A stretch of DNA of 19,275 nt from Escherichia coli (GTDB lineage: Bacteria > Pseudomonadota > Gammaproteobacteria > Enterobacterales > Enterobacteriaceae), in NCBI RefSeq assembly GCF_003334335.1, contig NZ_QOWQ01000054.1; one strand, written 5' to 3'. The position numbers and the translations under genes were made by a program. The stretch's first letter is position 1. Each line of letters opens with the position of its first letter. Below are positions 10,141 through 10,488 of the stretch, piece by piece. Under the pieces are notes generated by a model, which saw only the letters and a program-made list of their open reading frames with translations, was not told the origin of the DNA and made no database searches.

Positions 10141-10488
10141 ATGAAAAAACTTAATGTGTCAATTTTTTCTATTGCGGTTTGTTTTAGTCTTAATGTATTT
10201 GCTGGTGGAGGAGGATGGAATTCGGATCTTGTAGATCCGCAACAATGTGTAAAATTGTCAGGTGCACAGTATACATATAATAGCTCTTCTAATAAATGTA
10301 TGCAAGGTATCAACGAAGGGAAAGTCCATGGTGTTTCATTATTTGGAACATTCTATTATGGCGATGGCAGCCAAGGGACTTTTAAAGGAAGAGTTTCCCC
10401 GGGGACAACACTAAATACAAATCAAGATATGAACAAAACTAATAAATATGGCGTGAAATATAAGGTTATTACTGAGTGGGTTAGATAA
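10141..10488 (+). CDS. aap: dispersin-like secreted protein (Aap/CexE family)
   Basis: 115-aa ORF with a strong Shine-Dalgarno (AGGAG); signal peptide MKKLNVSIFSIAVCFSLNVFA followed by GGGGWNSDLVDPQQC...; motifs GWN.D.VDP.QC, SG.QYTYNS, C.QG.NEGKV.GVS, NTNQD.NKTNK, TEWV match my recollection of EAEC dispersin Aap. Adjacent aat operon supports the call. Confidence 0.8.
   Translation: MKKLNVSIFSIAVCFSLNVFAGGGGWNSDLVDPQQCVKLSGAQYTYNSSSNKCMQGINEGKVHGVSLFGTFYYGDGSQGTFKGRVSPGTTLNTNQDMNKTNKYGVKYKVITEWVR

Follow-up and report, generated by a model that had tools for sequence, protein, structure and literature searches.

A divergent chromosomal dispersin-like gene of Escherichia coli whose predicted signal-peptide cleavage exposes a run of glycines

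We analyzed a stretch of 19,275 nucleotides from Escherichia coli (contig NZ_QOWQ01000054.1 of RefSeq assembly GCF_003334335.1; the whole stretch is called 'the window') that contains at positions 10141–10488 (+ strand) a gene for a protein resembling dispersin (Aap), the Aat-exported coat protein of enteroaggregative E. coli (EAEC). On the comparisons described below, this 'aap-like' gene is in all probability a chromosomal allele-group of the Aap/CexE family that would encode the coat-protein substrate of the Aat system located 1.9 kb downstream, and the mechanism is very likely that of the known Aap/CexE pathway. The finding is correct but ordinary, and it is not new because the exact protein, the SignalP output that predicts its cleavage, and the locus (the island) have already been published.

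The open reading frame (ORF) encodes 115 amino acids, and its ATG is the first start codon past the upstream in-frame stop; the product begins with MKKLNVSIFSIAVCFSLNVFA followed by GGGGWNSDLVDPQQC, so both the length and the N-terminus given in the original prediction, which was made from the DNA alone, are exact. The signals of the gene are:

10130–10134 (+), Shine-Dalgarno sequence AGGAG, read from the sequence, 6 nt before the ATG
10141–10203 (+), Sec/signal peptidase I signal peptide, residues 1–21, with n-region MKK, h-region LNVSIFSIAVCFSL and c-region NVFA
10204–10215 (+), four Gly codons, GGT GGA GGA GGA, residues +1 to +4 of the predicted mature protein
10204–10488 (+), mature dispersin-like domain (94 residues) plus stop codon, delimited by the match to Protein Data Bank (PDB) entry 2JVU and by the family alignment

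Family membership is established by homology, by the Cys pair and by the C-terminal Trp. In a phmmer search against all PDB chains, dispersin (2JVU) matches residues 22–114 (E = 3.4e-38), and the start of its chain, GGSGW, is paired with GGGGW of the aap-like protein. The residues that are invariant in a 13-member family alignment are all present (C15, C32, G55, P66 and the C-terminal W92 of the mature protein), and the protein aligns with Aap without gaps over residues 1–105, that is, across the cleavage site; the dispersin hallmarks noticed in the original prediction are therefore real. The suspicion raised there that this is a divergent member is also correct: the protein shares 74 of 115 residues (64.3%) with Aap of p55989, 65–66% with mature Aap alleles (65% with that of strain 042), and 60–66% with every plasmid Aap in PLSDB (tblastn). 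In the family alignment its identity is 43–48% to an intermediate Aap-like group and 22–33% to the CexE types; the similarity to the family is clear. The gene is 68% identical to plasmid aap at the nucleotide level. The ratio of nonsynonymous to synonymous divergence (dN/dS) relative to p55989 aap is ~0.13 (Nei-Gojobori), which, with dS saturated at 2.3, can be read no more than qualitatively as pointing to long purifying selection. The possibility of a chance ORF was rejected on the dispersin match and this ratio.

A Pfam-A scan of the protein found no significant family and no NCBIfam model matches it, which accounts for the RefSeq label 'hypothetical protein'; a near-identical database protein has the precomputed tag PF28204.1. 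A word-indexed homolog search returned two near-identical clusters only, so the published family set was used for comparison instead.

The closest characterized relative is Aap of the pAA plasmids (strains 042 and 55989). Both proteins have a 21-residue signal peptide ending in xFA, a Gly-rich N-terminus followed by W-N-x-D-x-V-D-P-x-Q-C, two Cys residues, the C-terminus TEWV(K/R), and a basic mature form of ~10.2 kDa with an isoelectric point (pI) of ~9 (for the aap-like protein the computed values are 10.25 kDa, pI 9.2 and 2 Cys). The contexts also agree, with a partner aatPABCD operon, an AraC-family regulator, and adjoining chaperone-usher fimbriae of the aggregative adherence fimbria (AAF) type. 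They differ in the N-terminus (GGSG in Aap, GGGG here) and in a one-residue deletion near the C-terminus here (115 residues, vs 116 in p55989); the partner proteins are equally divergent, with identities of 51–70% for the Aat proteins, 37% for the regulator and 27% for the pilin. CexE of enterotoxigenic E. coli (ETEC) H10407 and Citrobacter rodentium also shares the Sec/signal peptidase I signal peptide, Gly at +1, two Cys residues and a C-terminal W-x-K, and its pathway is the same (AatD acylation, Aat export, and control by an AraC regulator of the Rns/CfaD type); however, in the family alignment it shares only ~22% of its residues with the window protein, and no pairwise tblastn match is found.

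The signal peptide has an h-region of 14 residues with a mean Kyte-Doolittle hydropathy of 2.07. Cleavage after Ala21, that is, between VFA and GGGG, satisfies the −3/−1 rule and would leave a mature N-terminus, GGGGW, with Gly at +1 and a Gly/Ser-rich stretch in the first five residues. The rule is also satisfied after G23 and G24, which would expose Gly, and after G25, which would expose Trp; because of the Gly run the exposed N-terminal Gly is robust, since two of the three alternative sites also yield it. The product is residue-for-residue identical to RefSeq WP_083583138.1, for which the published SignalP output (PMC7943197, supplementary file 2) is SP(Sec/SPI) 0.9934, site 21–22 (VFA-GG), Pr 0.9635, and LIPO 0.005. 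The −3/−1 rule, the gap-free homology with Aap and the published SignalP output thus agree with the original proposal that cleavage after the Ala exposes Gly. In the family, cleavage between Ala21 and Gly22 has been measured for Aap of strain 042 by intact-mass mass spectrometry (PMC7478709), and Edman sequencing gave GGGNS as the N-terminus of mature CexE (PMC7943197). The published source file contains SignalP-trimmed homologs; among its first 83 entries, 82 have an N-terminal Gly, and the leading runs are of one (20 proteins), two (42), three (10) or four (10) glycines; the four-Gly run is at the top of the range in this subset and is not unique to the window protein.

The same residues bear on whether the product could instead be a classical lipoprotein, acylated on Cys by Lgt/LspA/Lnt and sorted by the Lol pathway. 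The signal peptide does contain a Cys at residue 14, and Belmont-Monroy et al. use the term 'putative lipobox' for Aap and report that Lnt complemented an aatD mutant (PMC7478709). However, residues 1–35 contain no match to the lipobox [LVI][ASTVI][GAS]C and no Cys at +1, Cys14 lies in the middle of the h-region, the published LIPO score is negligible, and no Aap/CexE homolog has a Cys next to the cleavage site (PMC7943197), so that this reading has almost no probability; the predictions point to Sec export and cleavage by signal peptidase I. The two pathways are nevertheless related: AatD is homologous to Lnt and shares its E-K-C triad, and in both the product is N-acylated and secreted. They differ in that the Aap/CexE pathway uses signal peptidase I rather than LspA, places a single acyl chain on a glycine amine, and exports its product by an ABC/TolC route resembling type I secretion rather than by Lol.

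The evidence that links an exposed Gly to AatD comes from the two characterized substrates. For mono-acylation of CexE and Aap, AatD is both required and sufficient; the acylation site is the invariant Gly that signal peptidase I leaves at the N-terminus, Gly at +1 is required, and secretion by the Aat system needs the acylation (PMC7943197). mCherry becomes an AatD substrate when it is given one N-terminal Gly, and additional glycines (up to three) increase labelling (PMC7943197). Independently, Belmont-Monroy et al. (2020) described an AatD-dependent modification of Aap and the catalytic triad E207/K268/C316 (PMC7478709). The role of AatD given in the original prediction is therefore correct, and Gly22 (Gly+1) of the aap-like product is the predicted AatD acylation site.

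The window encodes aatPABC and aatD in the same island as the predicted substrate. The insertion sequence (IS) remnants take their names from the annotation that RefSeq gives for a locus 99.3% identical to this one, transferred to window positions, and the identities are to the p55989 proteins as the pAA reference:

10683 (approximately) to 11531 (−), N-terminally truncated remnant of an IS481-family transposase, from the mapped annotation (~10683–11528; window ORF 10710–11531)
11557–12303 (+), IS66-family tnpC remnant with both ends missing, a window ORF (mapped annotation 11557–12234)
12427–13569 (+), aatP homolog, ABC permease, 380 residues, 58% identical to pAA AatP
13566–14804 (+), aatA homolog, TolC-like outer-membrane protein, 412 residues, 51% identical to pAA AatA
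14701–15525 (+), aatB homolog, periplasmic adaptor, 59% identical to pAA AatB, with a weak RND_mfp match; its start codon is uncertain, and later ones are used in RefSeq records
15491–16135 (+), aatC homolog, LolD/MacB-like ABC ATPase, 70% identical to pAA AatC
16148–17359 (+), aatD homolog, Lnt-like N-acyltransferase, 403 residues, 52% identical to pAA AatD, beginning 12 bp past aatC

From the stop codon of the aap-like gene to the start of aatP there are 1,938 bp, and the partial IS481 and IS66 tnpC genes annotated between them are the two IS remnants that the original prediction had placed there. Separation of aap/cexE from a contiguous aatPABCD by >1 kb is the most frequent organization, seen in just over half of 826 systems, so the arrangement is ordinary for the family. 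Alignment to pAA AatD shows that the motifs of the catalytic triad are retained in the window AatD (SENVFF for E207, HQKTKLIPF for K268 and HICYE for C315); the protein matches the Lnt model TIGR00546 weakly (E = 7.5e-9), and a phmmer search of AatD against PDB found nothing at E ≤ 0.01. RefSeq starts AatD ~114–165 bp farther downstream (348–365 residues) and names it 'carbon-nitrogen hydrolase family protein', 'acyltransferase' or 'hypothetical protein'; the longer start at 16148 is probably correct, because the 403-residue ORF aligns end to end with pAA AatD. The window AatP is listed as WP_021523949.1, and the accession set as a complete Aat system, in Table S1 of Icke et al. (PMC7943197). 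Dunne et al. (2017) reported a second, disrupted substrate gene downstream of the machinery in NCTC 86; eight family queries found none in the window. Immediately downstream of aatD are a fragment of a group II intron maturase domain (17419–17868, −) and a full-length IS481-family transposase gene (17925–18896, +).

The cognate AatD, encoded 5.7 kb downstream of the aap-like gene with its triad intact, also speaks against a product that is exported and cleaved by signal peptidase I but stays non-acylated, a soluble protein in the periplasm or released from the cell that would not depend on AatD. Such a product would accord with the long-held view that dispersin is held at the surface only by electrostatic binding to lipopolysaccharide, and with the observation that some strains make dispersin without aatPABCD (PMC7315649). 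Given that Gly+1 is invariant in the family and that a single N-terminal Gly suffices even on mCherry, we consider it very improbable, and the acylated Aat substrate is the reading that we retain.

Upstream of the gene we scanned for promoters with the published AggR criteria, that is, WWWWWWWTATC with at most two mismatches in the A/T tract and a −10 hexamer 21–23 bp downstream (PMC6392122):

10020–10030 (+), candidate AggR/Rns-type box GTTTTATTATC, one mismatch in the A/T tract, from the motif scan
10054–10059 (+), candidate −10 hexamer TAGTAT, inferred, 23 bp past the box
10504–10525 (+), perfect 9-bp G+C-rich hairpin beginning 16 nt past the stop codon, at the other end of the gene

The distance from the candidate box to the ATG is 121 bp in the window, vs 134 bp for the AggR box of aap in strain 042, and MAFFT aligns the candidate with the characterized AggR box of the pAA aap promoter. 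Both the box and the −10 are invariant in seven island alleles; a 1-bp indel in the spacer (~10046) toggles the spacing between 22 bp (in CB209 and NCTC86) and 23 bp, both of which are permitted. With generic sigma-70 criteria no promoter was detected on the + strand ahead of the gene, and only an activator-type architecture fits there; taken together, these observations are suggestive of an AggR/Rns-type promoter. The hairpin folds as RNA with −22.1 kcal/mol (z = −5.45) and is a probable terminator or mRNA-stabilizing stem lacking the canonical T-run; the terminator scan did not flag it because there is no T-tract.

A candidate activator is encoded nearby. In near-identical islands an AraC-family regulator (WP_021523955.1, 265 residues, 37% identical to AggR) lies ~2.3 kb past the position of the window end:

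11748–12545 of the CFSAN061761 stretch L003 (−), AraC-family regulator, from annotation

The regulator is annotated in eight of nine sampled islands and is truncated in NCTC86 only; it is full length and identical in the seven loci that cover the whole gene, and CFSAN061761 carries it as well, the stretch L001 cutting the gene. No Aar/ANR homolog was found in the window and its flanks. Two further boxes on the + strand, each with a −10-like hexamer at 22 bp, are located 92 bp upstream of aatP (12335–12345) and 97 bp upstream of the fimbrial chaperone gene (5079–5089); the motif is frequent, and the arrangement is consistent with one AraC-type regulon for fimbria, Aap and Aat. Two variations in the upstream region were also observed: near ~9973, ~50 bp upstream of the box, CB209, NCTC86 and TW01221 have 30 bp that the window lacks, an indel with the repeat ATTGnATTTAA...GTCAGT at its flanks; and in TUM1857 (stretch L005, 15929–17157) an IS2 has inserted downstream of the pilin gene, ~320 bp before the ATG of the aap-like gene, leaving the candidate promoter intact. 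Just past the regulator is a partial gene for the EspI autotransporter; in CFSAN061761 it is followed by a type I restriction-modification system and DarTG.

In the pathway that we propose, transcription would start from the promoter with the AggR/Rns-type box ~120 bp upstream of the gene, probably driven by the AraC-family regulator of the island itself. The 115-residue precursor would be exported by Sec and cut by signal peptidase I after Ala21, as predicted for this protein and measured for its homolog Aap only. By analogy with CexE and Aap, the Lnt-like AatD would then add one acyl chain to the α-amino group of Gly22. The homologies of the Aat proteins suggest that the acylated, basic 10-kDa protein would be passed to the surface by AatP/AatC (the ABC transporter), AatB (the adaptor) and AatA (the TolC-like protein), where, again as judged by homology, it may coat the cell and modulate the behavior of the adjacent AAF-like fimbriae.

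Several observations weigh against this assignment. Every functional step for the variant is transferred from Aap or CexE, and AatD of C. rodentium failed to complement an EAEC aatD mutant (PMC7478709), that is, AatD-substrate pairs are not freely interchangeable and function cannot be assumed across 50% divergence; this point is tempered by the co-inheritance of AatD and substrate in the window. The two groups that studied the modification disagree as to whether Lnt can also acylate Aap (PMC7943197 vs PMC7478709). The AggR motif is degenerate and composite box/−10 sites are frequent (28 per strand in the 19-kb window), so the motif scan by itself carries little weight. IS elements are scattered throughout the island, and IS481, IS3 and the group II intron maturase fragment separate the regulator from the structural genes. 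In NCTC86 an IS3-family element splits the usher gene, which is uninterrupted in the window, and the regulator is truncated; the genome paper judged the fimbrial locus of that strain non-functional (Dunne et al., 2017).

The state of the island raises the alternative that the aap-like gene is a silent relic. On this view the gene looks intact but is no longer expressed and has no function at present, having been left behind in a pathogenicity island that is full of IS elements and decaying. Across the nine chromosomes sampled, the flanking iroN, iroE, iroC, EspI and many transposase genes are pseudogenes; IS remnants part aap from aat, and the regulator from both; and the NCTC86 lesions just described are in keeping with such decay. 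The genes of the system have a different fate in the same nine chromosomes: the aap-like gene and the five aat genes are full length in all of them, with 0–1 substitutions in the aap-like protein and 0–3 in each Aat protein, and the regulator is conserved as described above. Survival of the aap-like, aat and regulator genes amid pseudogenes argues for function and against a dead relic. The low dN/dS since the split from plasmid aap, the retained AatD motifs, and the invariant promoter box and −10 point in the same direction, so we regard a relic as unlikely, and a functional Aat substrate gene remains our preferred reading.

The distribution of the gene separates it from plasmid aap. A blastn search of 5,426 complete E. 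coli genomes found it at ≥95% nucleotide identity in 54 records (~1%); among the matches listed, all 11 of the near-identical copies are chromosomal and annotated 'hypothetical protein'. The same search gave 96 matches at 60–80% identity, as many as there are plasmid places (96), and those listed are all plasmid genes named 'dispersin Aap'; no copy with >66% amino acid identity is present among the PLSDB plasmids. With megablast the only plasmid match was to an IS fragment at the query's 3′ edge, not to the gene. At least 80% of the window is present at 99.0–99.5% identity in 39 genomes. The identical product occurs in ECOR05, A297 and CFSAN061761 (WP_083583138.1), and one-residue variants occur in NCTC86 and ECOR50 (V13A, WP_021543690.1) and in ECONIH1 (N27S, WP_021523946.1). 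The chromosomal Aat/dispersin homolog of NCTC 86, ECOR05, ECOR50 and ECONIH1 is the same locus, the window being 99.0–99.5% identical over its full length; the pilin allele differs strongly between carriers.

This locus has been described before. Dunne et al. (2017) reported that the chromosome of NCTC 86 (Escherich's strain) has a secretion system 'homologous to the Aat/dispersin' system of EAEC 042, together with an AAF-like chaperone-usher locus and a putative substrate gene that is complete, and took its presence in a commensal as a sign of colonization rather than pathogenesis. Rivas et al. (2020) grouped the polypeptide of NCTC86 with the dispersin clade and not with the main CexE variants of ETEC. 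Icke et al. (2021, eLife) include the exact protein and two single-substitution alleles among 224 homologs, and their data contain the sequence, the SignalP-trimmed form, and the complete Aat system in ECOR05, A297, ECONIH1, NCTC86 and ECOR50 (PMC7943197). Petro et al. (2020) mention that aggR-negative isolates have an 'aap-like' gene, for which they give '47% homology' to aap of strain 042. We found no functional study of this chromosomal variant in the searchable literature.

The locus illustrates that secretion of glycine-acylated lipoproteins by Aat is not confined to the plasmids of diarrhoeagenic strains and is also encoded in the chromosome of ~1% of sequenced E. coli, a point already made by Dunne et al. 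(2017) and Icke et al. (2021). No long-standing question is made newly testable and the practical value is limited: the RefSeq label 'hypothetical protein' and the shortened AatD could be corrected in the annotation, and definitions of EAEC that use polymerase chain reaction (PCR) or probes for aap and aatA will miss or misjudge a variant that is 68% identical.

Outside the gene itself, what is most interesting is the hypervariability of the pilin and the selective survival of the Aap, Aat, fimbrial and regulator genes. Tentatively, and with more doubt than confidence, we suggest that the island could be a complete, maintained and functionally orthogonal counterpart of the AggR regulon (an AraC activator, an AAF-like fimbria with a fast-diversifying pilin, a four-Gly Aap, and a co-diverged AatD/Aat) that might serve colonization of the gut, and not diarrhoeal virulence, in E. 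coli of the commensal and extra-intestinal kinds, and whose AatD-substrate pair would not cross-react with the plasmid system.

Upstream of the aap-like gene the window contains a decayed salmochelin (iro) cluster, from 245 to ~4700, with remnants of IS150 and IS630 as its boundaries. Its iroN and iroC genes are truncated, the latter with a frameshift in addition; most carriers have a frameshift in iroE, and iroD is intact. It is followed at 5176–9644 (+) by an intact AAF/Afa-type operon for a chaperone (255 residues), an usher (868 residues), an AfaD-like subunit (144 residues) and a pilin (171 residues); the gene order is that of aggDCBA, and the pilin is 27% identical to Agg3A. The major pilin gene (9129–9644, +) is hypervariable between islands that are otherwise ~99–100% identical: in the nine sampled chromosomes the pilin differs at 8–53 of 171 residues, vs 0–9 for every neighboring gene. 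Nucleotide identity drops to 69% at 9484–9580 and is back to 100% by 9681, a pattern that looks like allelic replacement or diversifying selection.

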